A stretch of 64,000 bases of DNA from a virus: the IMG/VR virus record IMGVR_UViG_3300045988_149288, one strand, 5' to 3'. Below, in pieces: positions 1,440-30,083 of the stretch (the first letter of the stretch is position 1; every line of letters starts with the position of its first letter). The notes beneath the pieces are model-generated. The model worked only from the letters and a program-made list of their open reading frames with translations. It was not told the DNA's origin and ran no database searches. A program made the position numbers and the translations under genes.

Positions 1440-2267
1440 TTATGCACCACACATTTTTACAAAGTCTTCTTCGGAAATAAGGGTCGTTCCTTGCTTACGG
1501 GCTTTTTGAGCCTTGCTCGAAGTGGAATTCGGATCGGCGAGCACGAGGAAGTTCGTAGTCTTCTTCATGGTTTCATCAACGACACCGCCGTTGTTTTCGA
1601 CCAATGCCCAGAGTTCCTTACGAGAACGGGAAGCCGCACCAGTGAAACAGAAAGACTGACCGTTGAGAACACCCGCGACAGGAGCCTTCGGAACGAGAAT
1701 GGAGATATACTTCAAAGTTTCTCGCATGTCGGATTCGAGTGCCTTCAGACCAGCTTTGAGCTTATCGGACGTAATTTGACCCACGCCTTCGCAAACATAA
1801 TTGTTACAGTTGATGAAGTCTTCGAAAGTGGTCAATTTCTTCGCATCGATAATCCTCTGGACGATTCTTTCGCCAAGGCCTGAGATGTTATAGCCCGAGA
1901 TAAATTGAGCCAATGTGGCTTGTTTATGGGCTTCTATTTGAGCCTTAATGATTTCAGCGGAACGTTTGCCGTAACCTTCAAGATTTTCAATCTTCTTGTA
2001 GTCAATCTTGTAGAGGTCCGAGATAGACTTGAAAACGCCAGCGTCATAAAGAGATTCAATGGTAGTCAAGCCAAGTTCCATAATCTGAAGCTTTTCAGTC
2101 CATTTCGAAATACGACCGGAAAACTTGCTCTTGCACAATTCGTTAGTGCAATAAAACTGTTTATGGTTTTCGGAAACTGCCAAATCACCGCCGCAAATCG
2201 GACAAACGGTCGGCATGTTCCAGTTATGAAGGCTTGCTAAAGTTTTAACGTCCATTGTAATCTCCAT
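1440..2267 (-). CDS. NAD-dependent DNA ligase C-terminal module (Zn finger, HhH, BRCT), stand-alone
   Basis: CPICGG..C..C Zn finger, HhH repeats, BRCT-like GQSFCFTG; no adenylation domain; start placed at ATG MEITMD preceded by TTTGCTATATTG motif (track start is TTG). Confidence 0.7.
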   Translation of the reverse strand: MEITMDVKTLASLHNWNMPTVCPICGGDLAVSENHKQFYCTNELCKSKFSGRISKWTEKLQIMELGLTTIESLYDAGVFKSISDLYKIDYKKIENLEGYGKRSAEIIKAQIEAHKQATLAQFISGYNISGLGERIVQRIIDAKKLTTFEDFINCNNYVCEGVGQITSDKLKAGLKALESDMRETLKYISILVPKAPVAGVLNGQSFCFTGAASRSRKELWALVENNGGVVDETMKKTTNFLVLADPNSTSSKAQKARKQGTTLISEEDFVKMCGA

Positions 2268-2315
2268 TGTATGACTACAATATAGCAAATTTGGCAAGCA
2301 TTGTCAATGGTAAAT

Positions 2316-2510
2316 TTATGGGTTATCTATCGGGACGAGCTTCCATCCATATTTTCCGCACCTTTCTCTCGCGAATGCTGCGGCTTTTTCGTCGTCAGTC
2401 CAGGTTTTCACGTTTTTATCCATCATATACTGATATGTATTGGAATTCGTAGGAAATACCGGACCATTAGGAAAATCAAACTGTACTGTCCAAATATTAT
2501 TACATGTCAT
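2316..2510 (-). CDS. hypothetical small protein
   Basis: 64-aa ORF. Confidence 0.25.
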   Translation of the reverse strand: MTCNNIWTVQFDFPNGPVFPTNSNTYQYMMDKNVKTWTDDEKAAAFARERCGKYGWKLVPIDNP

Positions 2511-2688
2511 CTTGAATTACCTTTTCTGAAAATTCTTCGAGCTTATCTAGGCTCTTTTCTGCTGCGACGCGTTCTTCTGTAACGACGTCGGTATCAAATC
2601 TATCGAGATGAAGCATGGCCCTAGCCAATTCTGCGGCCGGGAACATTTCCATCATTGTTTTCGGTCTTTCTTTATTTTCTTCGTCCAT
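2500..2688 (-). CDS. small acidic hypothetical protein
   Basis: ATG at 2688 immediately downstream of TTTTACTATATTTT motif; upstream part of track ORF overlaps uvsX and is probably not coding. Confidence 0.3.
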   Translation of the reverse strand: MDEENKERPKTMMEMFPAAELARAMLHLDRFDTDVVTEERVAAEKSLDKLEEFSEKVIQDDM

Positions 2689-2712
2689 AATAATAAAATA
2701 TAGTAAAATAAA

Positions 2713-2737
2713 AGGGCCCATTTGGACCCTTTTATTT
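2713..2737. terminator. bidirectional rho-independent terminator downstream of uvsX
   Basis: aaaagggcccatttggaccctttta hairpin flanked by A-run and T-run. Confidence 0.5.
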
Positions 2738-2755
2738 ATTTGTTCTGGAAAACAA

Positions 2756-3949
2756 CTACATATCGTCGTCGTCTTCAGCGAGAATATCACCGTCGAGTTC
2801 GTCGAGGTTAGCACCAGTACGGTTAACCATAGCGATACCTGTATTTTCACTGAGGTCTTCGTAACCCGCATTCATAAGAGCGAGAACGTCTTCGTTTGCG
2901 TTGATAAGTACCTGTTCTTCGAATGCGAACTTGGATTCTACATAGTGCCTGAACGTTTCATCCTTATAGAGAGGAATCCAGAATTTAGCACAGTAGAGTT
3001 CTTCTTCCTTCCACATTCTTTCCGGCTTGCCAAGTTCACCAGTTTCAGGATCAACCTTGGTGTCATAACCGATACGTGCATAATAACCCGGCTTCGGCTT
3101 GTAAACTACGCCACATTCCATGGCTTCATCCAAAAGTCCGTAGTACGGAGATACACCACCTGCATGAAGGATAAGATACTTGGTCTTGACGAATTCCTTA
3201 GCGGAACGACCCTTAGCAACAGCACAGGTAACGACCTTACCAAGAACATTCTTGCCCTTGTCACGTTCCTTCTTAGAGGAGTAACCGAGAACAATACCGT
3301 CAGCGTTAAAGATAATACGCATACCGCCAGGAATCTTATACGGGTCGCCGAACATTTCAAGAGAAGCATAAACGTGGTTCATGACGAGAGTCGTGAAACC
3401 GCCACTCAAAATAATGTTTGCGAGTTCGTTTTTGAATTTTGCGGAAGACATGTTAACAGCGGAACTTCCCTGTTGAGCCTTTTCAAGAACCTGGTCTTCG
3501 ATAATCGGACCCCAGGAGTCAAACAATACGAAAGTATTGCGACGTTGCTGAAGCGAGCCACACTGAGCCGAGAGCTTAGCGATGAACTGCTTAATTTTCG
3601 GAATGCTGTTCGTAGGACCGTGAACACCGACTTCATCCATGTTAATTCCGAGCTTCGTAAGAAGGTCATAGTTAACGGAGTTTTCAGTATCGACAATGAA
3701 ACAGTCCATACCAGAATCCTGTGCAGCCTTAAGAACTGAATAACCAATCATGGACTTACCCCAGCCGGAACCGGCAGCAATCATGCTGATTGAACCCTTC
3801 TTAATACCACCCTTAATTTTACCAGAAAGAACGAGGTTAACCGAAATACAGTTCGTACTAAGCCATTCCACAGGAATACGCTCAGTATGAAGAAGATCGG
3901 CCAAATCCTTATCTTTCTTCATTTTCGCCAAAAGCGCGTTTTTTGCCAT
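2756..3949 (-). CDS. uvsX: UvsX-like RecA-family recombinase
   Basis: Walker A AAGSGWGKSM; blocks VNLVLSGKIKGG, HAGGVSPYYGLLDEAMECGVVYKPKPGYYAR and KFWIPLYKDETFRHYV align to T4 UvsX from memory. Confidence 0.85.
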   Translation of the reverse strand: MAKNALLAKMKKDKDLADLLHTERIPVEWLSTNCISVNLVLSGKIKGGIKKGSISMIAAGSGWGKSMIGYSVLKAAQDSGMDCFIVDTENSVNYDLLTKLGINMDEVGVHGPTNSIPKIKQFIAKLSAQCGSLQQRRNTFVLFDSWGPIIEDQVLEKAQQGSSAVNMSSAKFKNELANIILSGGFTTLVMNHVYASLEMFGDPYKIPGGMRIIFNADGIVLGYSSKKERDKGKNVLGKVVTCAVAKGRSAKEFVKTKYLILHAGGVSPYYGLLDEAMECGVVYKPKPGYYARIGYDTKVDPETGELGKPERMWKEEELYCAKFWIPLYKDETFRHYVESKFAFEEQVLINANEDVLALMNAGYEDLSENTGIAMVNRTGANLDELDGDILAEDDDDM

Positions 3950-4072
3950 TTTTTACCTATTATTTTATTTTGTCATCGAATTTGTCATCATGAGCTTTAA
4001 TCGGCTAACGTACTTTGAATCGCCCTTTTCATTGTACTTTTGCTGTTAGTCAGAATATTTATAATATAGAAA

Positions 4073-4094
4073 AAATGGTAAACTTTCATTTACC
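4073..4094. terminator. hairpin terminator followed (minus strand) by promoter-like TTTTTTCTATATTATAAATATT
   Basis: atggtaaactttcatttaccat 8-bp stem. Confidence 0.45.
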
Positions 4095-4115
4095 ATTCTT
4101 AAATTTGTTCCGATT

Positions 4116-4478
4116 TTATCGGCCGAGGAACTCATTGAGAACTTCACCTTCCGACGGATATAAATCACGGTACGGATTATGATATTCTGCTTTCTGTTTT
4201 ACGAATTCACTCTTTTCCGTCTTTTCGACAACGAAATCCTTATCAATCTTTGCAGCGGGTGCTTCAAGAATTTCCTTAGATTCCGTAATCTGTTGCGGCT
4301 TAATCAAACCTTCAGCAGCCTTAGGCTTTGATGATTCGTTAATCTGCGGAGCCGGAGTTTCTTGGTGAACGGCTTCATATTCCTTGAGCTTAGTCTTATG
4401 CTTTGTCCACATGTGAGAGCCAAGCTTCATACGGTTTTCAAAAGTTTCACCACAAATAGGGCAAGTTACTTGATCCAT
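4116..4478 (-). CDS. C2H2-type zinc-finger protein
   Basis: CPICGETF...H...HK.K.KEY resembles N-terminal module of HEG-like 53173..54093 and ORF 36658..36963. Confidence 0.45.
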   Translation of the reverse strand: MDQVTCPICGETFENRMKLGSHMWTKHKTKLKEYEAVHQETPAPQINESSKPKAAEGLIKPQQITESKEILEAPAAKIDKDFVVEKTEKSEFVKQKAEYHNPYRDLYPSEGEVLNEFLGR

Positions 4479-4490
4479 AGTCTACTCCAA

Positions 4491-5111
4491 TTATTTCTTT
4501 TTAGTATTCTTCTTTGCAGGCTTCTTCTTGTTCTTCTTTCCGTTAACTGCCTCATTTTGGCGGGGCTTAGTTTTCTTCGGAGTGCTTTTGCCTGGCTTGA
4601 CAGTTTTCTCAGTCTTCTTCTTGGTTTCATTTGTTGTTTCCTTACGTGAACGCTTCTTTTCAGTCGGCTTCTTGACCGGCTTAAGAGCCTTTGCAATCTT
4701 CTTCAGATCTTCATCGGAAATCTTGTCGGTTTCCTTTTCAACGACCTTCGGAGTAGCAGGAACTTCAGCCTTAGCCACTTCCAATGTTTCTGGAGTTTCA
4801 GCGAGAACCTTGCCAGCGAGCTCTTCTGTTACAGTATATGTCGGTTCCAATTCAACCATCGGTTCCGGCTTATTTGCTTCTTCGCAAATAATGTTTCCGG
4901 CTTCCATGATGTCGCATGCTGTCTGCTGACATTCTGCTTCATGCTGAGCTGGATCTTCTTCATATCCTTCAATCATAGAGTCAAGCGGATTTTCGTCAAG
5001 CTTAACGATTTCCGGCTTCTGTTCACGCAATGCCTTGCGGAGCAAGAAATATCCGATTACAACCAAGATTACGGCGAGCGCAATCAAACCAATTACTAAT
5101 GTAGTATTCAT
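4491..5111 (-). CDS. membrane protein with Lys-rich histone-H1-like tail
   Basis: N-terminal TM helix LVIGLIALAVILVVIGYFLL; C-terminal KKPTEKKRSRK...KKNKKKPAKKNTKKK. Confidence 0.45.
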   Translation of the reverse strand: MNTTLVIGLIALAVILVVIGYFLLRKALREQKPEIVKLDENPLDSMIEGYEEDPAQHEAECQQTACDIMEAGNIICEEANKPEPMVELEPTYTVTEELAGKVLAETPETLEVAKAEVPATPKVVEKETDKISDEDLKKIAKALKPVKKPTEKKRSRKETTNETKKKTEKTVKPGKSTPKKTKPRQNEAVNGKKNKKKPAKKNTKKK

Positions 5112-5159
5112 TTTTTCACCTCATTAAAATATAACTTGTGTATTGTATATATAAAATTT

Positions 5160-6236
5160 CTAACTGAAAAACTCGAACATTGTCGGTCGTTCCAAATTAA
5201 TTTCTTCCTTCGGACCTAACCAACCAGCGATTCTGAACATCGTATCGAAAAGCTGACAGAAAGATTTTCTGAATGCGGTTTCATAGTCAATCTCAAAGTA
5301 TTTATTAAATTCTTGCGGCCAAGATTCGAGATATGCGACTGCTTCAATCGGCGAAGTTTTTCCGTCCATATCCTTGGCTACAATCTTCTGAGATGGCTTT
5401 ACATATACATATCGTAATTTGGAATTATTACGAATCGGGTTATATTTCAACCTGTCCTTAGTAACGATATAGTTGTAGATAATCGAAATCTTTGCACCGA
5501 AAATGAGACCAGTCGGAAGAATCAAACCATGGTCCATGTAATAGTCCATGAGCGTCTCGTATTTCATATCGAATGGCGTCGTATTCATCGCGCTTTCAGA
5601 ATACAGTTCTCTGAATTTGTCCATAGCGATTGTCGTATATTTCGTATAGTTCTTAATACCGATAACCGACGAAATAACGTTCAAATCCGAGCTCTTGAAC
5701 TGGTCATAAACCTTATAGATATATTCCTGCGCTTCTTCCTTACCGATACCATCACAGATTTTGAATGCGAGTTCTTCAGCAGCCGTTTTACAGAAGTCAG
5801 GCATGATCGATTTCTTAATAGGAACGCCCATAATTTTATGCTTCATGTGGTCAAGCGGGTACAATGAACCTTCGCTGTCGATAATGTTACCGATATACAA
5901 CTTCTTGGCAAAACAGAACATGTTTTTGAAGATGTTTTCACGGTTGAAATTAATCTTATTGACAGTATGGAACTGCTTGGCTCGAATGTCGAGAATCTTA
6001 TCGAAGAAACGCTGGAACACGTCCTCGCATTTCTGGAAATAGCTTCGATATTCCTCTTCGTTCGTAATCGATAAACCAGATTCCATCAAACGCTTCTTTA
6101 GCTCAATAATCGAAAAATAAACTGAGTCCGTATCATTATGGATCGCACAGACATCGCGACCTTTCACGACAAGAGGACTCATGTCGTTCATTTGAAATTT
6201 ATCAATCTTTACATCTAATGCTTTCTTAAATTTCAT
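5160..6236 (-). CDS. family-B DNA polymerase, C-terminal cistron (43B-like: motif C, thumb)
   Basis: Motif C HNDTDSVYF; start ATG at 6236 one nt after TAA of upstream cistron (GAGGATTAAAATG with SD GAGGA); first 35 codons of track ORF are out-of-frame overlap. Confidence 0.8.
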   Translation of the reverse strand: MKFKKALDVKIDKFQMNDMSPLVVKGRDVCAIHNDTDSVYFSIIELKKRLMESGLSITNEEEYRSYFQKCEDVFQRFFDKILDIRAKQFHTVNKINFNRENIFKNMFCFAKKLYIGNIIDSEGSLYPLDHMKHKIMGVPIKKSIMPDFCKTAAEELAFKICDGIGKEEAQEYIYKVYDQFKSSDLNVISSVIGIKNYTKYTTIAMDKFRELYSESAMNTTPFDMKYETLMDYYMDHGLILPTGLIFGAKISIIYNYIVTKDRLKYNPIRNNSKLRYVYVKPSQKIVAKDMDGKTSPIEAVAYLESWPQEFNKYFEIDYETAFRKSFCQLFDTMFRIAGWLGPKEEINLERPTMFEFFS

Positions 6237-6237
6237 T

Positions 6238-8445
6238 TTAATCCTCAATACCGAGAAGGTCCGTGTCCTTGTTGAATTCATAAGCATAGATTTCCATTTC
6301 ATCATTACCGCGAAGAACAGTAATCTTTTCATAGAAATCAAACTTATATGTCTTTTCTTCTGTAATAATGGAAACTGTCGAGAATTCCTTAACTACATCC
6401 TTGAGCAAGAACGGAGAAACATAGTATTCATTGAGATTCTTAGTCAACCAGTCTCTCAAGGTAACACGAGCACAACGGCAAATAGCACGAGCAACATCTG
6501 GGTCATACAATGCGAAGCTGTTTGCAAGAGATACACCGTAAACCGAGTTAATGATGAGCTTTTTAGTCATCTGTCGATTATGATACAAATGTTCACCAGC
6601 CTTATCGCCTTTCTTGTGACATTCCTTTTCCTTATTCTTATATACCTTACGTTCTGCAAACACCTGCTTAACAACGTTCGGAAGAATACCGTCATCGCGG
6701 TTATAGAAACCGAGTTCTGCAACGTCTGTCGGAATAACCTCACCTGATTCAATCTGTTCCTTGGTCGGATGAACAACCTTCAATTCCGGAGAGATATGGA
6801 ATTCCATAATGTGGTGCGGATATGACGAGGTAATATCGAAAGACATACAGTCGTCATGTCGACCAGGATAGTCATAGCAATAACCTGCCTTTACCTGGAA
6901 TTCTGGGAACGGATGAGGATCCTTCTTATACGCTTCCCATGCGGCAAGGAAATCCTTTTCAGTTTTCCAATGCTCGAATCTTCTCTGTCCGACAAGTCGC
7001 TTGATTGTATCATAATCATACTTTCCTTCAGTCTGAGCTTCCTTATAAGCATCATAGAAAACACGGAACTTACAATAGTCCTTATAACGTTTTGCGCCCG
7101 GTTCCCATTCAGTGTTCTGGAAGTAATCGTTTCCGTCCTTATCCTTTACGATATAGCAACGTTCGTTTCTCCACCAGTCAACATGATGGTCTTCACGGTC
7201 ATTCAAAACACGGTTGGTCTTATGTAAGAATTTTAAGATATAACCAGTAGTCGTAGGAACCTTCTGTTCAACCTTATCGAGAGTAACAAGGCAATCGAAT
7301 GCATATTCAATAATAAGGTCGAAGAGCTTGTTTTTCTTTTCAAGGTCGACCATAATCATAACGTCTTTTCTGTTATACTTCAGGAAGTTATTACCGTCAA
7401 TCTTGTAGGTTTCAGAAATTGCACCGCTATATTCCAACTTTTGATCATTCAATTCGAGGTTGGCAACATAGTTAAGGGAATACGAAGAAAGAGGCGGATG
7501 AGATCCGAAGACTTCGTACAGTTTCATGTAGTCAAGAGAATACAAACCAGGAATCGTGTACTTCGTTCCAAGTTCAACGTTTTCCATCTTGCGGTCAGTA
7601 ATCTTTTCAGCCACAGGCATCATGCCGAGAGGAGACAGATTCTTTTCCCATTCAACCTTGATGTCGTATTTCTCTCTGAGAACTTCACAACGACGCATGA
7701 TATAGGGAATATCGTATGCGAGCGAGTTCCAACCTGTAATGATGTCAAAATGATTATTGGCGAACCACTTAATCCATTCACGGATAAGTACCATTTCTGA
7801 CTTACAGTACGTATAATTCGGTAAATCCTTCGGGTCATCTGTATATCTGATTGTGCTCCAGGTATAAGATTGACCGGTCTTTGTAGAATAACAAGTAATG
7901 GCGTTAATTGGCCACTGAGCTATTTCAGGAGACGGGAAGTCATAAGAAACGAAACAGCTATCATCATAGGGAAGCCATTTCTGAACTTCAATGTCATAAA
8001 CGAAATACTTGTCATGGTCAAACTTCATATCGAAATCAATAAGACTGATGTCGAGAGTCTTCTTGGTTTTCTTTTCGCAGACCTTAATCAATGTTTCGTC
8101 ATAATACTTACTTCCTGACGCAACTTCAATATCGAAGAAACAGATATTCCATTTGCTCATGTCAACTTGGAGTTCTTCGTTATCGTATAGTTGGTGCATG
8201 TATTTGACTTCTGGACGCAAATTACCTTCACATACGCCTCTAAGACCCATAAGGGAATTACGGTCACTATAATCGAACCGTATCATCGGTGTCTTGTGAA
8301 TGTCAGTAATATTGCTCTTCTTTGAAGGATCCGGCCTGTAGCACCAGTTATGAAATTCAACTTCTTTAAAATCAATATCATCTTGGGCTTTAAAATAGAG
8401 CTTTTGTTTTTTAAAGTCCCAGTAACAATTCTTAAATCCACTCAT
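6238..8445 (-). CDS. family-B DNA polymerase, N-terminal cistron (43A-like: 3'-5' exo, pol motifs A and B)
   Basis: Exo I FFDIEV, Exo II GWNSLAYD, pol motif A DITSSYP, motif B KLIINSVYG. Confidence 0.85.
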   Translation of the reverse strand: MSGFKNCYWDFKKQKLYFKAQDDIDFKEVEFHNWCYRPDPSKKSNITDIHKTPMIRFDYSDRNSLMGLRGVCEGNLRPEVKYMHQLYDNEELQVDMSKWNICFFDIEVASGSKYYDETLIKVCEKKTKKTLDISLIDFDMKFDHDKYFVYDIEVQKWLPYDDSCFVSYDFPSPEIAQWPINAITCYSTKTGQSYTWSTIRYTDDPKDLPNYTYCKSEMVLIREWIKWFANNHFDIITGWNSLAYDIPYIMRRCEVLREKYDIKVEWEKNLSPLGMMPVAEKITDRKMENVELGTKYTIPGLYSLDYMKLYEVFGSHPPLSSYSLNYVANLELNDQKLEYSGAISETYKIDGNNFLKYNRKDVMIMVDLEKKNKLFDLIIEYAFDCLVTLDKVEQKVPTTTGYILKFLHKTNRVLNDREDHHVDWWRNERCYIVKDKDGNDYFQNTEWEPGAKRYKDYCKFRVFYDAYKEAQTEGKYDYDTIKRLVGQRRFEHWKTEKDFLAAWEAYKKDPHPFPEFQVKAGYCYDYPGRHDDCMSFDITSSYPHHIMEFHISPELKVVHPTKEQIESGEVIPTDVAELGFYNRDDGILPNVVKQVFAERKVYKNKEKECHKKGDKAGEHLYHNRQMTKKLIINSVYGVSLANSFALYDPDVARAICRCARVTLRDWLTKNLNEYYVSPFLLKDVVKEFSTVSIITEEKTYKFDFYEKITVLRGNDEMEIYAYEFNKDTDLLGIED

Positions 8446-8447
8446 AG

Positions 8448-8462
8448 TATCAAATATAGAAA
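8448..8462 (-). promoter_or_regulatory. upstream motif TCTATATTTGAT (TAnnTTTG-like) before DNA pol
   Basis: member of recurring TTTACTATATTTG motif family 5-40 nt upstream of ATGs. Confidence 0.4.
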
Positions 8463-8463
8463 A

Positions 8464-8493
8464 AACCTACAAACGATTAAGTTTGTAGGTCTT
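8464..8493. terminator. bidirectional terminator
   Basis: aacctacaaacgattaagtttgtaggt hairpin + T-run. Confidence 0.55.
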
Positions 8494-8513
8494 TTTATTC
8501 CAAATTTCTTCAA

Positions 8514-8720: not shown

Positions 8721-8733
8721 AATTTGTTTTCCT

Positions 8734-9214: not shown

Positions 9215-9216
9215 TT

Positions 9217-10272: not shown

Positions 10273-11019
10273 TTAAACTAACTTCGTCTTTACCTTGTCA
10301 ATTAATCCGATTTTCTTTGCTTCGTTTGCCGACATGAAGTTATCGAACGAAGTAAGTTCACGGAGTTCTTCAGTAGTCTTTCCAGTCTGCTTCTTGAACA
10401 CACGATTCATGCTATCAGTCCAGTTCTGCAATTCCTTCTGGAGAATGCTAACGTCCTTGAGACGACCAGCAAAACCATCGGCGACAATACCAGCCTGATG
10501 AATCATGATACGAGAAGACGGGAAAGCATAACGATGGCCAGGAGTTCCATTAGCGAGAATAACAGAAGCCATGCTCGAGCAAGAACCACATGCAATCGTA
10601 TTGATAATAATACCCTTACGCTTCAGTTCGTCCATGACGTCGATGAGTGCGAAACCAGCGTCGCAATCGCCACCAGGAGAAGAAAGGTAAATGGTAACAG
10701 GTTCCTTCAGGTCATCATCGTAGAACGAGAGACGCTGGATAGTACGGATAGCGATACTCCAGTCAATAGCGCCCGTAATCCAAATACAACGCTTGACTTC
10801 GAAGTAATTCTGACGCATGATTTCGAAATAACCGCCCATTTCACCAAGAGGAATTCCCTGTTGTTCAGGTTCTTCCGGCTGACCTTCAGGAGGAACAGCT
10901 TCAGGATTTTCCGGACCTACAGGAGGCATTTGACCCGGATTCGGAGTAACCATCGGAGCAATCGGTGCTTCTACTGGCTTATTATCAGATTTCTTCTTTA
11001 CGATGCGCTTTAAAGACAT
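10273..11019 (-). CDS. ClpP-family serine protease
   Basis: IYLSSPGGDCDAGFALIDVM, active-site-like GSCSSMASVI, RIMIHQAG. Confidence 0.7.
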   Translation of the reverse strand: MSLKRIVKKKSDNKPVEAPIAPMVTPNPGQMPPVGPENPEAVPPEGQPEEPEQQGIPLGEMGGYFEIMRQNYFEVKRCIWITGAIDWSIAIRTIQRLSFYDDDLKEPVTIYLSSPGGDCDAGFALIDVMDELKRKGIIINTIACGSCSSMASVILANGTPGHRYAFPSSRIMIHQAGIVADGFAGRLKDVSILQKELQNWTDSMNRVFKKQTGKTTEELRELTSFDNFMSANEAKKIGLIDKVKTKLV

Positions 11020-16214: not shown

Positions 16215-17402
16215 ATGAAAATTGATTTATCGACTATCAAAAATGACCTTCTCACTTCTGGTATGAAACTTGCTTCCGCTATCGAAAGCAAGGGTTATGA
16301 AGCATACCTGGTTGGCGGTTGCGTTCGTGATATGGTTCGCTGGTCTCTCGGCCAGAGCGGTTTTCCTGATATTCATGATATTGACATCAGTACGAACATG
16401 CCTATCGAAGAACTTCAGAAAACCTTCAAGACCGCATCCAACAACGGTGAGGCTCACGGCACTATTCTGGTTTTCCAGGACGGTGAACCTTTCGAGGTGA
16501 CTCAGTTCAGAACCGACGGTGCATATACTGATGGTCGTCACCCCGATTCAATCACTTTCGCCAAGACTTTCAAGGAAGACTGCTTACGTCGCGATTTTAC
16601 CATCAACGCTATGGGACTTAGCGGCAAGGGTGAAGTGATTGACTATTACGGTGGTATCGCTGATGTCGAAAACGGTATTATTCGAGCTGTCGGCAAGGCA
16701 GAAGATCGTTTTGCTGAAGACTACCTTCGAATTTTCCGTGGTGTTCGCTTCATGGTCAACTTCGATTATTCTTTGGCTGATAGCACTTACGAAGCGATGA
16801 AGACTACTGCTTCTACTTATACCTATAAGCTGGATTCTCTGTCTTATCCTCGTATTCGTGGTGAAATTAGCAAGGTCAAGAACCCTTCTAAGAATCTTGC
16901 GAAGTTCTTCTTTACCTTGAACCATACTGGTGTTCTTAACTGGCTTACTACTTTCAGAAATGTCGATGTTCCTGCAATGATTAAGCGTTTGGAATCTGTA
17001 AAGCATCTCAACGAAGATAACATTTTCGCTGTAATCGCTTTCGGTGAAGAACCTGAAATGCTTGAACGCCTTTCTGCTACTCGCGAAGATTCTCGTCTTC
17101 TCAAGTGGTATAATTACATGCTCAAGAAGCTGAAGGAAACAAACGAGAACATTAGCTGGGATAGTATTGTTAAGTTCGTTGAGGGTGATTACAAGACACT
17201 CCTCGAAATGACCAAGATTATTCCTGCATGGTATCATCGAATTCCTATCGCTCTGAAGCTGAAAGACGATAAGCCTGATTTACATGCCATCGTCGAAAGA
17301 GTTCAGAACGAATTAGGTATCAAGCCAAGTGCTAAGTTCGGTCTTGCGGTTGACGCACTTCTCGAACAAGAATACGAAGCGAAAGCAACGAAAATCCAAT
17401 AA
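16215..17402 (+). CDS. cca: CCA-adding tRNA nucleotidyltransferase / poly(A) polymerase family
   Basis: Head-domain motif YLVGGCVRDMV...DIDI and class-II NTase body; plus-strand gene in a minus-strand block. Confidence 0.8.
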   Translation: MKIDLSTIKNDLLTSGMKLASAIESKGYEAYLVGGCVRDMVRWSLGQSGFPDIHDIDISTNMPIEELQKTFKTASNNGEAHGTILVFQDGEPFEVTQFRTDGAYTDGRHPDSITFAKTFKEDCLRRDFTINAMGLSGKGEVIDYYGGIADVENGIIRAVGKAEDRFAEDYLRIFRGVRFMVNFDYSLADSTYEAMKTTASTYTYKLDSLSYPRIRGEISKVKNPSKNLAKFFFTLNHTGVLNWLTTFRNVDVPAMIKRLESVKHLNEDNIFAVIAFGEEPEMLERLSATREDSRLLKWYNYMLKKLKETNENISWDSIVKFVEGDYKTLLEMTKIIPAWYHRIPIALKLKDDKPDLHAIVERVQNELGIKPSAKFGLAVDALLEQEYEAKATKIQ

Positions 17403-18339: not shown

Positions 18340-19572
18340 TCATTCTTCAATAGTCCTTTGCACGTTAGAAGGTTCCAATTTTTTGTGTACAGCACGCTTT
18401 ACAGAAACAAAGCTCTTGTCATTGCGAGAAATACACTTGATAGCCTGCATAATAGCCCCTACATCGCTTTTATAGTGTGCTGTGGCATATTCATAGCGAG
18501 AACGCTGGTCTTCAACAGCCTTCATGGTTTCACGAGCTTCAGAGACGACTACTTCAGTTAATTCTGCTACCCTTTTACGTACGCTTTCGGCGTATTCACG
18601 TAATTCCGGGAATTCTTCAGGAATATACAAAACTTCGTCGTCAATCGGCTTGTAACCCTTTGTCTTGTCGACATTGGCATGGAAGAAATCCTTTTCACAG
18701 TCGTAAGCTACCCAGATATTCCATTCACTAAGGCATTCGAGCATTTTCGCAAGCTGGCACCATTCATCAGACTTTACCTTAATCTTGAAACCGTGTTCCG
18801 GGAAAGTGATAACGTAACCTTCCTGGTTTGACGGAAGCTTGGTTGCGATATTTCGAGCTTCATTGAAAGTATCGAATTCGTAAATCTCCGCCATCTTGAT
18901 TCCCCAAGCATTAGCATAGACACGAAGTCCGGTAATGTGTTCTTCTTCGTCAGTTTCATTATCGATAACAGCGAGCAGCACAAGGCCTTCGAAGTCATAA
19001 CGGATCGGATGGAAATCCTCGTTATAAACGATTTCGAACAGGTAGGTCTTCTTCGGGTTCAAGAGTTCCTTTTTGATATGCTGGTCAAACCAACGCTGTC
19101 CCCAGATTGCCTGGTCAGAATCGAAAGAACCGCCGGTTTTCAACTGCCAATGTTTCAGATACGGATTCCAGAATACGATACCCAAAGACCCGTCAACCTT
19201 TTCCATAGTATGGAAACGAATAGACTTCAGAATCTTTCGGATGTCAATCTTCTTCTGGTACTTCATGACCTTCTTTGCGAGTTCCGTCAGTTCGCCAGTC
19301 TCGCTGTCAATCAGTTCACCGTAGTTGAAGAACTTATCGAACGGACGAGCTACGATTTCGCCGGTTTCAGAATCGAAAACGATACCACGGGAGGTGAGAG
19401 TAATCTCATCCCAATCCGAAGTATATACTGTTTCTCGAGTATACTTGAAACCAACGAGCTTACCGTACCAGTGAGCTGTGATTCGTCCTTTTTCTGCCGC
19501 CTTCAAATACTTACGAAGCTTGTGCTTCTTCTGTATTTTCCTTAGCAGGTTCTTCAACTTTTCCGTTATCAT
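18340..19572 (-). CDS. rnlA: RNA ligase 1 (T4 RnlA-like)
   Basis: Motif I EKVDGSLG (KxDG); N-terminal RGIVFDSETGEIVARPFDKFFNYGE aligns with T4 Rnl1 [28 protein letters not shown]. Confidence 0.8.
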   Translation of the reverse strand: MITEKLKNLLRKIQKKHKLRKYLKAAEKGRITAHWYGKLVGFKYTRETVYTSDWDEITLTSRGIVFDSETGEIVARPFDKFFNYGELIDSETGELTELAKKVMKYQKKIDIRKILKSIRFHTMEKVDGSLGIVFWNPYLKHWQLKTGGSFDSDQAIWGQRWFDQHIKKELLNPKKTYLFEIVYNEDFHPIRYDFEGLVLLAVIDNETDEEEHITGLRVYANAWGIKMAEIYEFDTFNEARNIATKLPSNQEGYVITFPEHGFKIKVKSDEWCQLAKMLECLSEWNIWVAYDCEKDFFHANVDKTKGYKPIDDEVLYIPEEFPELREYAESVRKRVAELTEVVVSEARETMKAVEDQRSRYEYATAHYKSDVGAIMQAIKCISRNDKSFVSVKRAVHKKLEPSNVQRTIEE

Positions 19573-20655: not shown

Positions 20656-21771
20656 TTATTTATTAAGGTAATCTTCAATAATCTGCTCGTGATGGAAACC
20701 CATCTTCGGGAGGTCATTAACATCGAACCATGCAGCATCCTTGGCGTCGTCACCGGCCTTTGCGAGCTTCTTTTCCTTGCCAGATACCTTCACAGACACT
20801 GCTGTATCGATAATACGCAAGCGTGGGTCAAACATGTGGCTGTAGGTCTTAATCTGCTCAAACTTTTCAACCGGAAGGTCCAGGGACGTTTCTTCGCGGA
20901 ATTCACGCTGTGCTGCATGTTCCAAAGAAGCATCTGCTTTTTCCGGAAGTCCGGTTTCCTTATTAGTATAGTCGGTCGGATTAAAAAAACCACCGGGTGT
21001 GCAGAAGTAGTTCATGTAAGGCGGTTTCTTACGGCGAATCAACAGAACTTGGTCACTAGAAATACCGACAATATCGACGGTATTGGCGAACTTGCCCCAG
21101 CCCTGCTTCTTGTAGTTTTCAAGCCACTGCTTTTCGAGTTCTTCGTAATTGGACGGGTTCTGGTCATAAAGGCTGTTAGTCTTGATAGGCATATCACGGT
21201 CATCAGTCAGTTCGCCTTCTTTACGGATATATTCGAAAACCGGCTTGCTGATATACTGCTTCACATCCTTGTAATGACATTCAGGATTTCTGTAGAAAAT
21301 ATCACGAGCTTCGCTACTGGAAATATCGCCCTTGAGACCGAGATCGAGCAAAGAACAACCTTCACGCTTTTCGATACCAGTCGGAAGACCAGGATAACGA
21401 ACACAGACAATAAACTTGTAATTCTTCAAGAGACGGTCGCTAAACTTCCACTTCTTATCGAGCAATGCCTGCCATTCGTCTTCACCGATAACGATAGTAA
21501 TATCTGTATCTTCGGTTCCGAACTTGGAAGTAATGAATTCATAAGTTCTGTTATTCTGGATAAGAATAGTCGGATTCAACTTACGTGCCTTCATCGCAAC
21601 TTCAACCATAGCGGCACGTTCATTCACTGGCGTCTTGTAATTCTTTTCATCTGTATTGGAAACGATGACATAAAGTTCATCGCCTTTACGAACCTTCTTG
21701 CTCACAGCCTTGATAATAGCTTCATGAGCGTGTGTAATCGGATCAAATGCACCACCAATCAAATACTTCAT
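20656..21771 (-). CDS. bifunctional NMN adenylyltransferase / Nudix hydrolase (NadM-Nudix, NatV-like)
   Basis: N-terminal GGAFDPITHAHEA (HxGH nucleotidyltransferase); C-terminal Nudix box AAQREFREETSL. Confidence 0.8.
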   Translation of the reverse strand: MKYLIGGAFDPITHAHEAIIKAVSKKVRKGDELYVIVSNTDEKNYKTPVNERAAMVEVAMKARKLNPTILIQNNRTYEFITSKFGTEDTDITIVIGEDEWQALLDKKWKFSDRLLKNYKFIVCVRYPGLPTGIEKREGCSLLDLGLKGDISSSEARDIFYRNPECHYKDVKQYISKPVFEYIRKEGELTDDRDMPIKTNSLYDQNPSNYEELEKQWLENYKKQGWGKFANTVDIVGISSDQVLLIRRKKPPYMNYFCTPGGFFNPTDYTNKETGLPEKADASLEHAAQREFREETSLDLPVEKFEQIKTYSHMFDPRLRIIDTAVSVKVSGKEKKLAKAGDDAKDAAWFDVNDLPKMGFHHEQIIEDYLNK

Positions 21772-21772
21772 A

Positions 21773-22141
21773 TTATCTCCCAAAGAAATTTCCACAATGA
21801 GTTTCGACATCACCCATGACATCGCCCTTAACTGTAATGTTTCCGGCTTTTGTTTCTACATCGCCCATAACATCACCGCCAATTTCAACATTGCCAGCTG
21901 AACATTCAACATCACCGTCGACATCACCCTTTACAGTAATATTATGTCCTTTACAGGTACTGATAATGTCGCCATTAACGGTAATGTTGATAATCTTATC
22001 AGTTACTTCAATGGTCTTGGTACCGATAGTGATATTGTTACCATTGATACTAACATCACCAACAGGGTTATGAATTTTATGGCCATTAATTTCGATGCTC
22101 TTTACACCACCGAGACCTTTAAGAATATTCTCTTCAGACAT
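21773..22141 (-). CDS. bactofilin-like beta-helical repeat protein
   Basis: Repeats VKGDVDGDVE / IGGDVMGDVE / VKGDVMGDVE typical of bactofilin (DUF583) windings. Confidence 0.5.
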   Translation of the reverse strand: MSEENILKGLGGVKSIEINGHKIHNPVGDVSINGNNITIGTKTIEVTDKIINITVNGDIISTCKGHNITVKGDVDGDVECSAGNVEIGGDVMGDVETKAGNITVKGDVMGDVETHCGNFFGR

Positions 22142-22889: not shown

Positions 22890-22891
22890 TC

Positions 22892-23212: not shown

Positions 23213-23215
23213 GAT

Positions 23216-23776
23216 TTACCCCTTAAGCACAGTAGCATGACGGGAAGCTGTAACGGTTGTAAGTTCGACACCAGTAGCGTCAAAAATACTGAGCTTCGTA
23301 GAACTGAAAGAAACTGTAAAGTACGGATTCTGACTCGGCGCTTCAATCGTCAAATCCAGAGCACTAATGCCAGTAACCTTGACCTTTTCATAAACATAAG
23401 AACCATAAGGAATACTCGGATTCAGCTTGAACTGGTCGACAACAAGCTTGTCAAGCATATAACCATTCTTCAAAGCGTCAATCCAGAAAGCATAATCGAC
23501 GATGTTTGCTGCCTTGAAAACAATCGAGAAACAAAGATTAGCTGAATCTGTGAATTCACGCATAGCATCAGATTCACCCTTCGTATTTGCCGCCATCGGA
23601 GCACCGTCTACACGATTAACACGACTGCTAAGATGTTCACTCCAAGCATTAATCAAAGTCTTGTTAGCGATATACTTGGAATTCGTGTTTTCACCGAATT
23701 CAAAACGAAGTTTCATTCCATATCCGTAGTCACGGGTAGCAGTTTCTTTTTGAGGGTAGATTTGCTGGTTATTCAT
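23216..23776 (-). CDS. hypothetical protein (possibly virion structural)
   Basis: 186-aa ORF directly downstream of a 638-aa gene; upstream TTTACTATATTATAC + AAGGAA. Confidence 0.3.
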   Translation of the reverse strand: MNNQQIYPQKETATRDYGYGMKLRFEFGENTNSKYIANKTLINAWSEHLSSRVNRVDGAPMAANTKGESDAMREFTDSANLCFSIVFKAANIVDYAFWIDALKNGYMLDKLVVDQFKLNPSIPYGSYVYEKVKVTGISALDLTIEAPSQNPYFTVSFSSTKLSIFDATGVELTTVTASRHATVLKG

Positions 23777-23837
23777 AGTAGTTCCTTTTGTTTATGTGTA
23801 TAATATAGTAAATTCGCCTATAAATGTCAACCCAAAA

Positions 23838-23867
23838 AATAAAAGGCCGACTTGCGTCGACCTTTTA
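23838..23867. terminator. terminator
   Basis: aaaaggccgacttgcgtcgacctttta. Confidence 0.5.
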
Positions 23868-23899
23868 CCCATCACACATCCGAATTATCCACACACTTC

Positions 23900-25816: not shown

Positions 25817-25924
25817 AACATTTCCTCATTAAAAGTGTTAAAGCGAGAAGTAGTATTTATTTGCCTAAATTATAATGATATAGGAACATCTTTTGCTTTA
25901 ACGGGTTAAAATATAGTAATTATT

Positions 25925-25952
25925 GAGGGTTTTGTAAACCCCTATTTTTTAG
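25925..25952. terminator. terminator
   Basis: gagggttttgtaaacccctatttttt. Confidence 0.5.
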
Positions 25953-26133
25953 TTTTTTCCTTGGTTACTTTCTTCTTCAAGGAGTTTTCTGTTTCCAACG
26001 TACTTCCCATAAAAACTTACCGCTCGGATCGTGTTAGAATAGTTTAGGGATTGAGTTCTGTTTGACGATAAACAACCCGAACGGTCTGTATAATATAGCA
26101 AGTGCTTTGTCTGTTGTAAACCCTATATATGAA

Positions 26134-26162
26134 AAAAGTAGAGCCGGTAGACTCTACTTTTC
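26134..26162. terminator. terminator downstream of patatin gene
   Basis: aaaagtagagccggtagactctactttt. Confidence 0.5.
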
Positions 26163-26177
26163 ATTCAAATTCCGATG

Positions 26178-27053
26178 TTATCTATTTTTTATAAAATCCA
26201 AAACATCTTTTTTGACTGTTTCATAGTAGTCTTCCCAAATATTGATGACCGTTGTAAGATTCGAACTGCTTACGTCGTCCATCTTCAGCTTCTTTTTGTA
26301 TTTAGGGCAAGCGTTAAATACATATTTGTCGCCAAGTATCGCCTTCGCTTCGTAAATCGGAGATTTACTGGCTCGCGCGGCCCAATCCGAAATGATGTAT
26401 TCAGCCCAACCGACCAAGGACTTGTTTCCGGAATCAGTATTCGGTGTATCGAGACCGGTTCCGAAATTCAAAATCTTGATGTCCTTGTGGTTCTGCTTGA
26501 ACTGACCTGCTAAAAGAACGTCTGTACAGTTATTGGCCCACATGCCACCGTCGCAGAACGAATTTCCCTTATCATCAACAATAACGTCGAAATAGGTCGG
26601 AGCACTGCAACTTGTCAAAATGGCGAACCATTTATTTGTATCAGTATCGCCGAGGTCCCATACCTTTTCTACGGATTCTCCGTTCATGTATGTAACCGGG
26701 ATAAATGTCGGTTTCTTCCAGTCTGAAACCTTACCATTGAAATTCTTTTTCAAGAGAGCTTTCAAATTGGAATTATCATAGGTCGGACAGGACGGTTTCA
26801 AACGCTTATACCAGGAATACTTAGTAAAAATCTTGCTAAGGTTTGCCTTGTAGAGTTCGAAAAGGTCATGTGCCGAATATCCTTCAGAAAGACCGCCAGC
26901 AATGATAGAACCGGTACTTGTTCCAGCAAAAGCCGTTGACAAATCACCGAGTTTCTTACCGAGGTCCTGTTCAAGACGACACATAAAAGCTAATGGGCCG
27001 ATTCCGAGAGCACCACCGCCTTCAACTGAAATACATAATTGTTTCTTTGCCAT
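26178..27053 (-). CDS. patatin-like phospholipase
   Basis: Oxyanion GGGALG, nucleophile elbow GTSTGS (GxSxG), catalytic DGG in FCDGGMW. Confidence 0.8.
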   Translation of the reverse strand: MAKKQLCISVEGGGALGIGPLAFMCRLEQDLGKKLGDLSTAFAGTSTGSIIAGGLSEGYSAHDLFELYKANLSKIFTKYSWYKRLKPSCPTYDNSNLKALLKKNFNGKVSDWKKPTFIPVTYMNGESVEKVWDLGDTDTNKWFAILTSCSAPTYFDVIVDDKGNSFCDGGMWANNCTDVLLAGQFKQNHKDIKILNFGTGLDTPNTDSGNKSLVGWAEYIISDWAARASKSPIYEAKAILGDKYVFNACPKYKKKLKMDDVSSSNLTTVINIWEDYYETVKKDVLDFIKNR

Positions 27054-27093
27054 ATTTTCTCCTATACTATTTATAAGAGAAAAATGACCAGAA

Positions 27094-27573
27094 TTATGCT
27101 AAATTTTTCAATATCATGGTTTCAAGCTCGAAATCATTCATGCTCTTTTTATATTCAAAACTATCATCATGTCCAGAAAGTCTCGAATATGGAATTCCCA
27201 TAGAATCCCAGATTTTATGCTGCATAACTATCCAGCCATTCTCAGCATAAAAATCTTCCCATCTATTAAGAAATTCAATCAAATCATTTAGCTTAGATTT
27301 TGTCAGCCATTCCAACATTTTAAAGACATTATCTTTATGGTCAAAAATCATTATTGCACATCTGTCTTTAATGGGCATAAGAGTACATGTGACCATAATT
27401 TCAAACTTTTCTTCATCTTCATACCAGCTGAGTTCAACCTCAAATCGATTATCCTTATCACGAAGACAAATACTTTCATGGGTTTGAGAAGTATTTATAC
27501 TCATGTAATAATTATCTGGTTTAATTCGAAGAATATAGTTTTGAAAATGCTGAAATGTATATGCGTCAGACAT
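27094..27573 (-). CDS. hypothetical protein
   Basis: 159-aa ORF. Confidence 0.35.
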   Translation of the reverse strand: MSDAYTFQHFQNYILRIKPDNYYMSINTSQTHESICLRDKDNRFEVELSWYEDEEKFEIMVTCTLMPIKDRCAIMIFDHKDNVFKMLEWLTKSKLNDLIEFLNRWEDFYAENGWIVMQHKIWDSMGIPYSRLSGHDDSFEYKKSMNDFELETMILKNLA

Positions 27574-28019
27574 TACTTCTTACCTAGAAGCTTATTAAAG
27601 GCATTTACGAGCTTACTGATTTCGTCTTCACCGTGTGTAGGTTCATAATCAATACTTGTATCATAAACAACACGACGTTGAACTGGTTCTTTCTTCATTT
27701 TTTCCTTATGTTCATTCATAAGTTTTTCAGCAAGTTCATATGACGGAATATAAAATCCAACATCCCATGAAGCATCTTTTGAACAAATATGAGGTTTAGA
27801 TTCTTCTTTCCAAAGACAGCTATCACGGTATCTTAAGTATCGTTCCATATTATAGGTCAAACGAAACCAAGTCTTCGAACCACTATTTATCTTACGGTAT
27901 TCAACAACAAACCATGACGGGTCTCGGTTTGCAATACTTGGAGAAACATCAAAATCGAACACTGGATATTCAAATGTACCAAGTTCTATAATACGATATT
28001 CATAAAGTGATTTTTCCAT
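27573..28019 (-). CDS. hypothetical protein
   Basis: 148-aa ORF. Confidence 0.35.
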   Translation of the reverse strand: MEKSLYEYRIIELGTFEYPVFDFDVSPSIANRDPSWFVVEYRKINSGSKTWFRLTYNMERYLRYRDSCLWKEESKPHICSKDASWDVGFYIPSYELAEKLMNEHKEKMKKEPVQRRVVYDTSIDYEPTHGEDEISKLVNAFNKLLGKK

Positions 28020-28064
28020 ATAATAAAATATAATAAAAAATATATTATTTGTTAATATATTATT

Positions 28065-28934
28065 TTAATTATCTTTATTTTCAACATATTCCCATTTTAA
28101 TTTTTCATTAGTTATAGGATCTCTACCTGCAGTTTTTCTTGTTCCATGTAAAACTTCTATAATTTTTGATGCTTTTTTAGCCCATTTTTTTGCATCAATA
28201 ATTGTTTTAAAAATCATACCATTATTTACGCACCGTATAGGTTTATATCTTGTTTCCCATGGATTCCAACCAGTTTCACGTTTTTCTTTATATTTTTCTC
28301 TTGCTAAAATACTATGTTCTTCAAGTTTATTTGGATTTGACCACGTAATTTTATTTGAATTCCTAATTTTTTCACGCCATTCCAGATTATCTTTATTTTT
28401 ATCTATATTATTTCGTAATGTATTACAAATAGTTTCATAATATTCAGAATTAGTCTTATATGTATTTTTCATACCTATTGATTTTCTATTTTTTATTTCT
28501 GGATTATTTGCTATTTGTTTTAACTTATTTTTTATTTTTTCTTTTTCTTCTTCTGTTCTATTTTTCCACATGTTATATGAAATTTCAGATTGCTGTTTTC
28601 GACGTTTATCATCAAAAACAGTACAATGATATTCATTTCTTATAATTTCATAAGTTCTTGATGAAATTTTTGATGTATATGTATTATTTAATGACAAAAA
28701 TATCCACATTGCACATGCGGTTTTTTGACATGGCCAAATTTTATAGCAAAGTATATGTGCAATAAAATGTTCTCGTGGTGTTAATAAAATAAAATTATGC
28801 TTATTTGAAATATATTGTGGAAAAATACATTTTGGAAATATATGATGTTTTTCATAATATATACCATTATGCTTACATCTATTTTCTAATTTTGCCTTTT
28901 TAATCAAATTTATATAAATTTTTCTATAATTCAT
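28065..28934 (-). CDS. HNH-like homing endonuclease (AT-rich islet)
   Basis: YYEKHHIFPKC motif; strongly AT-rich relative to flanks; TATAAATATAAT directly upstream of ATG. Confidence 0.5.
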   Translation of the reverse strand: MNYRKIYINLIKKAKLENRCKHNGIYYEKHHIFPKCIFPQYISNKHNFILLTPREHFIAHILCYKIWPCQKTACAMWIFLSLNNTYTSKISSRTYEIIRNEYHCTVFDDKRRKQQSEISYNMWKNRTEEEKEKIKNKLKQIANNPEIKNRKSIGMKNTYKTNSEYYETICNTLRNNIDKNKDNLEWREKIRNSNKITWSNPNKLEEHSILAREKYKEKRETGWNPWETRYKPIRCVNNGMIFKTIIDAKKWAKKASKIIEVLHGTRKTAGRDPITNEKLKWEYVENKDN

Positions 28935-28945
28935 ATTATATTTAT

Positions 28946-28968
28946 AATAAAAGGGGTTTTGACCCCTT
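28946..28968. terminator. terminator
   Basis: aaaaggggttttgacccctttatt. Confidence 0.55.
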
Positions 28969-28970
28969 TA

Positions 28971-30083
28971 TTAAAAAACATAACCATCGCGACTTATACC
29001 TGTAGTTACATCACGTAAAATGCATGGAATTACTTCATTTGAACGTGTAATAATAACTTCATGGCCGATTTCAATACCCATATATTCAAGCATATCAATA
29101 TTACACATATTTGCACGTTGAATTGTTGCACCACATAATTCTACTTTTTCTACAATAGCAACCGGAGTCAAATTGCCATTCTTGATAGACCATTCAATGT
29201 TAAGGATCTTGGTCTGAGCAAGAGAATACTTCGGCTTCAAAGCGATAGAGAATTCCGGGAGGTAATTCGTTTCAAGATCTTCATAATCGATAACAGAAGT
29301 CTTCCAAACAAGACCGTCAATCTGATAATCGCGTTCTTCATGCCAAACCTGGTCCATAATGGCAACAGCCTTATCGCCAGTCATAGAGTCGAGGTCATAA
29401 ATTTTGTATTCGACGACATCGAAACCCTGCTTGGTCATCCAGTCGAGCATATCGACCTGAGTATGAAATTTAGTGTTCTTCGGGCGAGCTTCATAAACCT
29501 TGATATTGAGCTTGTCACAATCAGAACCATCGAGATGCTTCATAATACCAGAAGCGGCATTACGACAGTTCTTGTACTTCGGGAAGAACTGTTCCTTAAC
29601 GGACTTGTAGAGCAAAATTTCACCACGGATAGTTCCGGTAAATTCCTTATCCTTAAGCTTCTTGACAGCACCTTTCATTTTGAGGATATTATCGGTAATA
29701 TCATCACCGTATTCACCGTCACCGCGAGTAATGCCCTGAACGAGCTTACCGTCAACGTATTCAAGAGCAATAGAACAACCGTCAAGCTTCAAAGGAGCGA
29801 CGACAAATTCATGACCGGCCATACGACACTTATTGAACCAGACGTTCATTTCTGGAGCCGTATTGGCCTTATTCTGAGAGCCCATGATAATGTTGTGTTT
29901 TACTTTTTCAAATCCTTCGGTATGATCCTTACCGACTTCCTTCAAAACATCAGAATCAGGATAATTGGTTTTGAGTTCATCCCAGAGAGCATCGAATTCG
30001 ATGTCGCTCATAATCGGGGTGTCGGAGTTATAGTAGGCATCTTGTGCCTGGCGGATTTTAGCTTCAAGTTCGTTCTTATTCAT
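28971..30083 (-). CDS. NAD-dependent DNA ligase N-terminal module (Ia, adenylation, OB), stand-alone
   Basis: Ia-like YYNSDTPIMSDIEFDALWDEL, motif I APLKLDGCS (KxDG), TRGDG; start set at MNKNELEAK after TTTTTTACTATATTG. Confidence 0.8.
   Translation of the reverse strand: MNKNELEAKIRQAQDAYYNSDTPIMSDIEFDALWDELKTNYPDSDVLKEVGKDHTEGFEKVKHNIIMGSQNKANTAPEMNVWFNKCRMAGHEFVVAPLKLDGCSIALEYVDGKLVQGITRGDGEYGDDITDNILKMKGAVKKLKDKEFTGTIRGEILLYKSVKEQFFPKYKNCRNAASGIMKHLDGSDCDKLNIKVYEARPKNTKFHTQVDMLDWMTKQGFDVVEYKIYDLDSMTGDKAVAIMDQVWHEERDYQIDGLVWKTSVIDYEDLETNYLPEFSIALKPKYSLAQTKILNIEWSIKNGNLTPVAIVEKVELCGATIQRANMCNIDMLEYMGIEIGHEVIITRSNEVIPCILRDVTTGISRDGYVF

Follow-up and report, generated by a model that had tools for sequence, protein, structure and literature searches.

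We analyzed a 64,000-nucleotide stretch of viral DNA (IMG/VR virus record IMGVR_UViG_3300045988_149288), hereafter the window, and propose that two of its genes probably code for the pair of subunits that make up one NAD-dependent DNA ligase of the LigA type. The catalytic subunit, which we call the N-half, is encoded at 28971..30083 (minus strand, 370 amino acids) and carries the Ia, nucleotidyltransferase (NTase) and OB domains. The DNA-binding subunit, or C-half, is encoded at 1440..2255 (minus strand, 271 amino acids) and carries a Cys4 zinc finger, helix-hairpin-helix (HhH) repeats and a BRCT domain. An earlier note on this DNA had described a ligase divided between two open reading frames (ORFs) about 27 kb apart; both ORFs exist, both are on the minus strand, and the gap between them is 26.7 kb. 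The idea of a two-subunit NAD ligase is already established from T5-type phages, and the window enzyme is an independently arisen, more widely dispersed version of the T5-type split.

The assignment of the N-half rests on several kinds of comparison. Pfam identified DNA_ligase_aden (PF01653, E=6.9e-34) followed by DNA_ligase_OB (PF03120, E=3.8e-17), together with a weak match to Nlig-Ia (E=6.8e-4). The protein covers positions 1-380 of the LigA model TIGR00575 in NCBIfam (E=3e-79, 267 bits) and positions 9-383 of the 656 in phrog_3869 of the PHROG database. The KLDG motif, with the motif I lysine at K99, and the TRGDG motif were both found in the translation, so that the domain content and motifs ascribed to this ORF in the earlier note were borne out by Pfam, by TIGR00575 and by the translation itself. 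Aligned with E. coli LigA, the N-half retains most of the residues of domain Ia; the positions that bind nicotinamide mononucleotide (NMN) in E. coli (Y22, H23, D32, Y35 and D36) read Y, Y, D, F and D, and the Ia residues Y17, D27 and D31 are invariant across 27 N-half homologues. The equivalents of E. coli K115, D117, G118, R136, E173, R200, D285, K290 and K314 are all retained and are likewise invariant in the 27 homologues. We noted two changes relative to E. coli LigA, R208 → K and R277 → H, the second in a poorly aligned stretch. An AlphaFold2 (AF2) model built from the 27-sequence alignment reached a mean predicted local distance difference test score (pLDDT) of 86.9, placed an OB beta-barrel at residues 288-358 and matched LigA structures as well as 9HU3_A in Foldseek; matches in the Protein Data Bank (PDB) were also obtained by sequence search. 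The chain ends in a clade-specific tail (...TTGISRDGYVF). The ratio of nonsynonymous to synonymous substitutions (dN/dS), measured against relatives at 86-99% protein identity, was 0.09-0.12.

The C-half was found to be derived from LigA and not from another HhH/BRCT family. It covers positions 384-652 of TIGR00575 (E=1.2e-38, 133 bits) and positions 385-653 of phrog_3869. Pfam detected the BRCT domain (E=2.6e-9), while HHH_5 (1.9e-5) and DNA_ligase_ZBD (8.1e-4) scored under their gathering cut-offs. The zinc cysteines C22, C25, C40 and C45 (numbered from a start at 2267) are invariant in 27 C-half homologues, and all four zinc cysteines of E. coli LigA (C408, C411, C426 and C432) are kept. 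The LigA structure 1DGS matched the C-half with E=1e-23, and a C-half profile matched 9HU3_B, annotated as ‘DNA ligase subunit B’, with E=1e-17. The AF2 model (pLDDT 85.0, from the 27-sequence alignment) matched LigA structures in Foldseek, with a root-mean-square deviation (rmsd) of 2.4 over 185 columns for 2OWO_A. The C-half dN/dS was 0.06 against relatives in the same identity range. Ahead of the zinc finger lies a clade-specific N-terminal head of 14 residues, MDVKTLASLHNWNM.

The earlier note had placed this gene at 1440..2267. The content of LigA C-terminal modules held up; the start did not, and the true start is most likely the ATG at 2255 (MDVKTL...). We favor this start because a GGAG sequence (2262..2265) lies 6 nt upstream of it, because C-half homologues measure 270-272 amino acids and because the methionine equivalent to 2255 is nearly invariant among them. 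The four codons added by a start at 2267 are probably not translated.

The complementary spans of the two proteins on TIGR00575 and on phrog_3869 indicate that they are exact complements of each other, cut in the linker from OB to zinc finger, where the two pieces abut. Together they reconstitute a full LigA (TIGR00575 positions 1-380 and 384-652), as had been proposed. They do not form the usual single LigA chain of about 650-700 amino acids; there are two ORFs, scoring 267 and 133 bits against a TIGR00575 equivalog cut-off of 444. The residues lying beyond the LigA model at the new termini number 9 in the N-half, after OB, and 14 in the C-half, before the zinc finger. An intact ligase elsewhere had been named as a finding that would speak against a two-piece enzyme. 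No second LigA-type gene was found within the 64-kb window, and no other DNA ligase among its ORFs of at least 240 amino acids. In a 411-kb relative (IMGVR_UViG_3300023371_000061), a scan with the N-half profile gave one match only, and thus no second LigA-type gene at the sensitivity of the scan.

Both regions were compared with the phage collection by megablast, without a match, so the window belongs to a new phage that has only protein-level relatives in that collection. In IMG/VR, three contigs (54, 137 and 411 kb) are collinear with the window and have the two genes on the same strand, separated by 26.5-27.2 kb; the arrangement recurs, at 86-99% protein identity, in assemblies made independently from other samples. 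The best 120 database matches of each half were all stand-alone halves, down to about 50% identity; they occur on contigs of up to 435 kb and measure 363-374 amino acids (N-half) and 270-294 amino acids (C-half), bar a few shorter and apparently partial ones. Stand-alone homologues number in the hundreds. From the conserved arrangement, these homologues, the low dN/dS and the retained catalytic and zinc residues we conclude that the split is real and old.

We determined the spacing of the halves on further contigs of the clade by profile scans of IMG/VR combined with ORF analysis. Both genes were found together on 13 clade members in IMG/VR; on three of these contigs the distance is about 27 kb, and on the remainder 0.2-6.6 kb. 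Among the closer pairs, a spacing of 0.2 kb was recorded on three contigs, and spacings of 0.77, 1.8, 2.8, 5.2, 5.6 and 6.6 kb on one contig each. Every clade contig with an N-half that reaches far enough downstream to include the C-half has both genes. No flanking ORF within 3 kb of the halves in the 0.2-6.6 kb groups matched anything in the window, and the 27-kb distance can therefore not be described as a simple insertion between once-adjacent genes. In relatives with adjacent halves (L014 at about 4190..4310, L016 and L017), a small hydrophobic peptide, for example MTKIIMIPVTFGITAFAFCCLASPFLVMGKSFIKGFIG, is encoded in the 0.2-kb gap. The overlap of its stop codon with the start codon of the C-half, as ATGA, hints at coupled translation.

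The earlier note had also assigned the two genes to different transcription units. At the level of sequence this is supported by a promoter-like site ahead of each half, a plus-strand gene between them and a hairpin after the N-half. We scanned the window for exact matches to TTGACA-N(16-18)-TATAWT and obtained five sites in 64 kb, compared to 0.16 expected; all are on the coding strand, with a 17-nt spacer that has a T-rich end, and with TATATT as the second hexamer. Two of the five directly precede the ligase halves: one at 30091..30119 (minus) upstream of the N-half, and one at 2279..2307 (minus) upstream of the C-half, where it is followed by the GGAG and the ATG at 2255. By a rough estimate that takes about 100 genes in the window, the chance of both halves carrying such a site is about 0.002. 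The other three sites lie at 23802..23830, 34677..34705 and 42636..42664 (all minus), and the genes behind them gave no Pfam match. The hexamers of the N-half site are kept in relatives despite diverged flanks, and those of the C-half site are kept in L006-L008 with a completely different spacer. In the group with halves 2.8-6.6 kb apart, the motif likewise stands ahead of both genes, once for each. In the window, only 7 nt separate the -10 hexamer from the ATG of the N-half, and for this reason the N-half mRNA may be leaderless or nearly so. The TTGACA-N17-TATATT format looks like an early promoter class of this phage group, and its presence ahead of both genes supports their placement in separate but similarly regulated transcription units. 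Since each gene stands behind the same strong sigma-70-type promoter-like site, both are probably activated together. Many further sites of this format occur in the related contigs L014-L102.

We examined the origin of the split by neighbour-joining of the N-parts with bootstrap. The split clade of the window was recovered with 94% bootstrap and is sister to the intact ligases of L020 and L021 (86%). The T5-type clade was recovered with 100% bootstrap and joined the window clade in 0% of replicates. Because intact ligases form the sister group of the window clade, its fission was independent of the one in T5. In a wider tree, whose deep nodes carry no bootstrap, about seven split lineages are interleaved with intact ones. 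Two more distant cases are among these split lineages. L038 (IMGVR_UViG_3300031992_000002, 434 kb) has a split ligase whose C-half lies 1.4 kb upstream of its N-half, and the group L128-L135 (contigs of 419-422 kb) has the N-part inside an ORF of about 460 amino acids with a gap of about 0.7 kb.

Short motifs mark the new termini of the window clade. The N-half tail TTGK..GY.F and the C-half head L...H.WN.P are kept clade-wide and are absent from intact relatives and from T5. The head precedes PTVCP.CG and forms a short helix in the AF2 model. Both motifs lie exactly at the two new termini.

The closest known counterpart is the ligase of T5-type phages. The T5 proteins LigA and LigB have been described as subunits A and B (PMC3632103), and in the T5 annotation ligA (323 amino acids) and ligB (259 amino acids) are adjacent, 200 bp apart, with promoters between them. 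The PDB entries 9HU3 and 9I5I, released in 2026, are titled ‘PR1 phage heterodimeric DNA ligase in complex with 21-mer nicked DNA’; the PR1 chains are close to T5 LigA and LigB (E=8e-104 and 3.8e-80), and our literature searches found no paper on the PR1 heterodimeric ligase. As in the window, the T5/PR1-type enzyme consists of a catalytic subunit (Ia, NTase, OB) and a DNA-binding subunit (zinc finger, HhH, BRCT), and its break lies in the same linker between OB and zinc finger, within about 9 alignment columns. The T5 genes each have their own promoter and the window halves each have their own promoter-like site. The solved PR1 subunits match both window halves by fold, and the C-half also by profile. 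The two systems differ in that the T5 genes are adjacent whereas those of the window are 26.7 kb apart, in that the T5-type N subunit is shorter (316-339 amino acids, compared to 370) and is without part of the NTase insert, and in the absence of the tail and head motifs from T5. Identity between window and PR1 in the Foldseek alignments is low, about 26-27% for the N-half and 19-20% for the C-half. Ligase families of half length, phrog_3359 and phrog_3498, already exist in PHROGs; neither is the best match of a window half, which in both cases is the full-length phrog_3869.

Single-chain LigA, from E. coli (PDB 2OWO) and from the phages L020 and L021, has the same domain order and the same catalytic and zinc residues as the window pair. 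The nearest intact ligases, those of L020 and L021 (659-665 amino acids), are 41-43% identical to the window pair in the N part and about 41% in the C part. Single-chain LigA is one polypeptide whereas the window enzyme is two, with the extra 14-residue helix at the N-terminus of the C-half and the distinct tail of the N-half. Other phage enzymes offer a broader comparison. Like the window ligase, the split DNA polymerase gp43 (family B; T4-related), nrdA and nrdD are cases of an essential enzyme of DNA metabolism that exists as two polypeptides presumed to reassemble. Such split genes are usually adjacent, often with a mobile endonuclease between them, whereas the window pieces are dispersed and the endonuclease there is a later arrival. 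We also considered whether FelixO1-type phages carry an N-half only, and rejected this: their ligase, of 366 amino acids, gave no match to either of the two half profiles, hence is not of the LigA type and has no bearing on the present case.

In single-chain LigA, it is the zinc finger, HhH and BRCT that hold the DNA beyond the nick and complete the clamp encircling the duplex. Clamp closure has been described as a contact between NTase and HhH, with the HhH domain giving essential DNA binding and the zinc finger positioning HhH relative to OB (PMC7470946, PMC5052709). Given that these C-terminal modules are needed, the N-half alone would be expected to bind DNA poorly. We propose that the N-half would bind NAD through domain Ia and adenylylate the motif I lysine, its NTase and OB surfaces sitting on the nick, and that the C-half would supply the zinc finger, HhH and BRCT. 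The covalent linker from OB to zinc finger would be replaced by a non-covalent assembly, probably on DNA, and this assembly may be aided by the tail TTGK..GY.F and the head helix L...H.WN.P as a candidate docking pair. On these grounds we infer that the two proteins associate physically and act jointly. In evolutionary terms, a single fission would have taken place in the ancestor of a very large phage clade, independently of T5, and the two genes would afterwards have drifted apart in the genome and been exchanged between lineages. The two-piece NAD ligase acting in trans, one of two possibilities raised in the earlier note, is thus the best-supported reading, on conservation, purifying selection, co-occurrence, promoter type and the PR1 structures (9HU3 and 9I5I).

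The trees of the two halves are strongly discordant. In the N-half tree the window group falls inside the adjacent-gene group (99%), and in the C-half tree it is sister to the 2.8-6.6 kb group (90%). Protein identities follow the same pattern: with the adjacent-gene group the window shares 54-65% in the N-half and 42-47% in the C-half, and with the 2.8-6.6 kb group 47-50% and 57-59%, respectively. A second case is c28832, which pairs with c37454 in the N-half tree but with c31993 in the C-half tree, at 100% each. The simplest reading of this discordance is that halves were exchanged between lineages by recombination. A bolder extension, which we put forward as a tentative possibility, is that the halves are freely exchangeable modules across very large phage lineages, able to reside at any position in the genome and held together by the tail and head docking pair. 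The window enzyme would then be a natural hybrid of catalytic and DNA-binding subunits from different lineages, and the free C-half might also serve other nucleotidyltransferases, for example the Rnl1-type RNA ligase encoded at 18340..19572.

Several observations weigh against two co-adapted subunits. The two ligase genes are unlinked, 27 kb apart. The discordant trees mean that the window pair has not co-evolved as a unit, contrary to what a closely co-adapted interface would lead one to expect. The N-half of a 74%-identical relative (425-kb contig) has no C-half within 10 kb of it, and L095, L100 and L101 show a C-half with no N-half within 3 kb. Co-expression is suggested by promoter-like motifs only. 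A further, ATP-dependent DNA ligase may also be encoded elsewhere in the genome of about 400 kb. The distance, the discordance and the contigs with a lone half would also fit two functionally independent proteins: an N-half that is a minimal NAD ligase or adenylyltransferase, or that works with another DNA-binding partner, and a C-half co-opted as a Zn/HhH/BRCT adaptor that recruits replication or repair proteins. BRCT domains make protein and DNA contacts in many proteins, and the Foldseek matches of the C-half include the BRCT domains of RFC1, TopBP1 and XRCC1. We nevertheless regard independent halves as unlikely. The LigA features of the C-half are strongly constrained, including the four zinc cysteines that in LigA position HhH relative to OB. 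Both genes are present on every clade contig long enough for both, and they stand behind identical promoter-like sites. In the homologous T5-type enzyme the two chains form a heterodimer on nicked DNA (PDB 9HU3), and the motifs of the split clade lie precisely where the chain was broken. For the co-opted role of the C-half, which the earlier note had offered as its other possibility, we found no positive support.

The N-half is followed directly by a homing endonuclease gene, and the splitting of phage genes by such elements is known, as with Aeh1 nrdA/mobE. The nrdD gene is also split in this way, in FelixO1-like phages (PMC4837284). The neighbouring element of the window is a mobile cassette of 950 bp (28020..28969, minus strand, GC content 0.32) that is not part of the ligase. 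It comprises a GC-rich hairpin (about 28951..28968, -11.7 kcal/mol) that follows the N-half, and a gene for a free-standing HNH homing endonuclease (28065..28934, minus strand; phrog_655, E=3.4e-28). Its insertion point is exact, with the N-half stop codon on one side and the start ATG of the following gene on the other. It is absent from all four close relatives, in which the N-half stop overlaps the next start as TAATG and the ligase is equally split. We therefore consider the cassette recent and reject the endonuclease as the cause of the split; the cassette is, moreover, located downstream of the N-half and not between the halves. In the relatives with adjacent genes, small ORFs (a hydrophobic one or others) occupy the spacer, and no endonuclease is present there. 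Rejoining of the halves, whether by a split intein or by RNA trans-splicing, is as improbable as an origin through the endonuclease, and we give neither any appreciable weight. A split intein was rejected since only 9 and 14 residues fall outside the LigA model, leaving no space for intein fragments.

Equally negligible is the idea that the split is an artefact or decay (mis-assembly, a frameshift or pseudogene fragments of ligA): although neither half reaches the LigA equivalog cut-off, this is in effect refuted by the conservation data, namely the same arrangement in independent assemblies at 86-99% protein identity, the hundreds of stand-alone homologues and dN/dS values of 0.06-0.12, and is contradicted by the promoter-like site of each half, the ribosome-binding site of the C-half and the clean termini at a domain boundary.

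Three genes related to RNA repair or to NAD lie between the ligase halves. They encode a CCA-adding or poly(A) polymerase-family enzyme (16215..17402), whose plus-strand orientation is shared by just one other long gene, the Rnl1-type RNA ligase mentioned above (18340..19572, minus), and a fusion of an NMN adenylyltransferase-like domain with a Nudix domain (20656..21822, minus; Pfam CTP_transf_like and NUDIX). The last is possibly a gene of NAD metabolism, which would be consistent with a ligase that consumes NAD.

The family B DNA polymerase of the window also appears to be in two pieces, encoded on the minus strand with an overlap of about 100 nt. The first piece (6238..8445, 735 amino acids) contains the exonuclease domain and the beginning of the polymerase domain. 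The second (5160..6341, 393 amino acids) covers positions 573-742 of an 856-position phage DNA polymerase family and also matches phrog_1918, which consists of C-terminal pieces. Several accessory genes that are unusual for a phage were observed on the minus strand, encoding a ClpP protease, a patatin-like phospholipase, a flotillin/SPFH protein adjoining LemA, and an M16 peptidase (10273..11019, 26178..27053, 31152..32801, 33584..34135 and 38299..39396). The stretch 48000..56000 has a GC content of 0.28-0.33, compared to about 0.40 elsewhere, and includes a gene for an MFS transporter (49221..50366); it may be recently acquired or rich in mobile elements. Two DUF7487 proteins are encoded at 48058..49107 and 53173..54093 (minus), one of which also matches homing-endonuclease PHROGs. 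Further insertions or deletions set the window apart from the 96%-identical contig L001, at 36504..37116, 26137..26269 and 31092..31126. The window alone has a 613-bp segment with an ORF at 36658..36963, and L001 alone has two segments, of 670 bp and 890 bp.

The LigA clamp is usually described as a conserved single chain. Our results indicate that in phages it has been broken at the linker between OB and zinc finger several times, and that the split pieces persist under selection even without any genetic linkage. They also call for care in annotation, since a half that stands alone is easily named ‘truncated ligase’, ‘BRCT protein’ or ‘hypothetical protein’; several database records bear such labels. 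The clade offers a natural test bed for how a DNA-encircling enzyme is assembled from parts and for which contacts suffice. That the halves are of mixed ancestry hints at a portable interface, which, if confirmed, could be useful for engineered split ligases.

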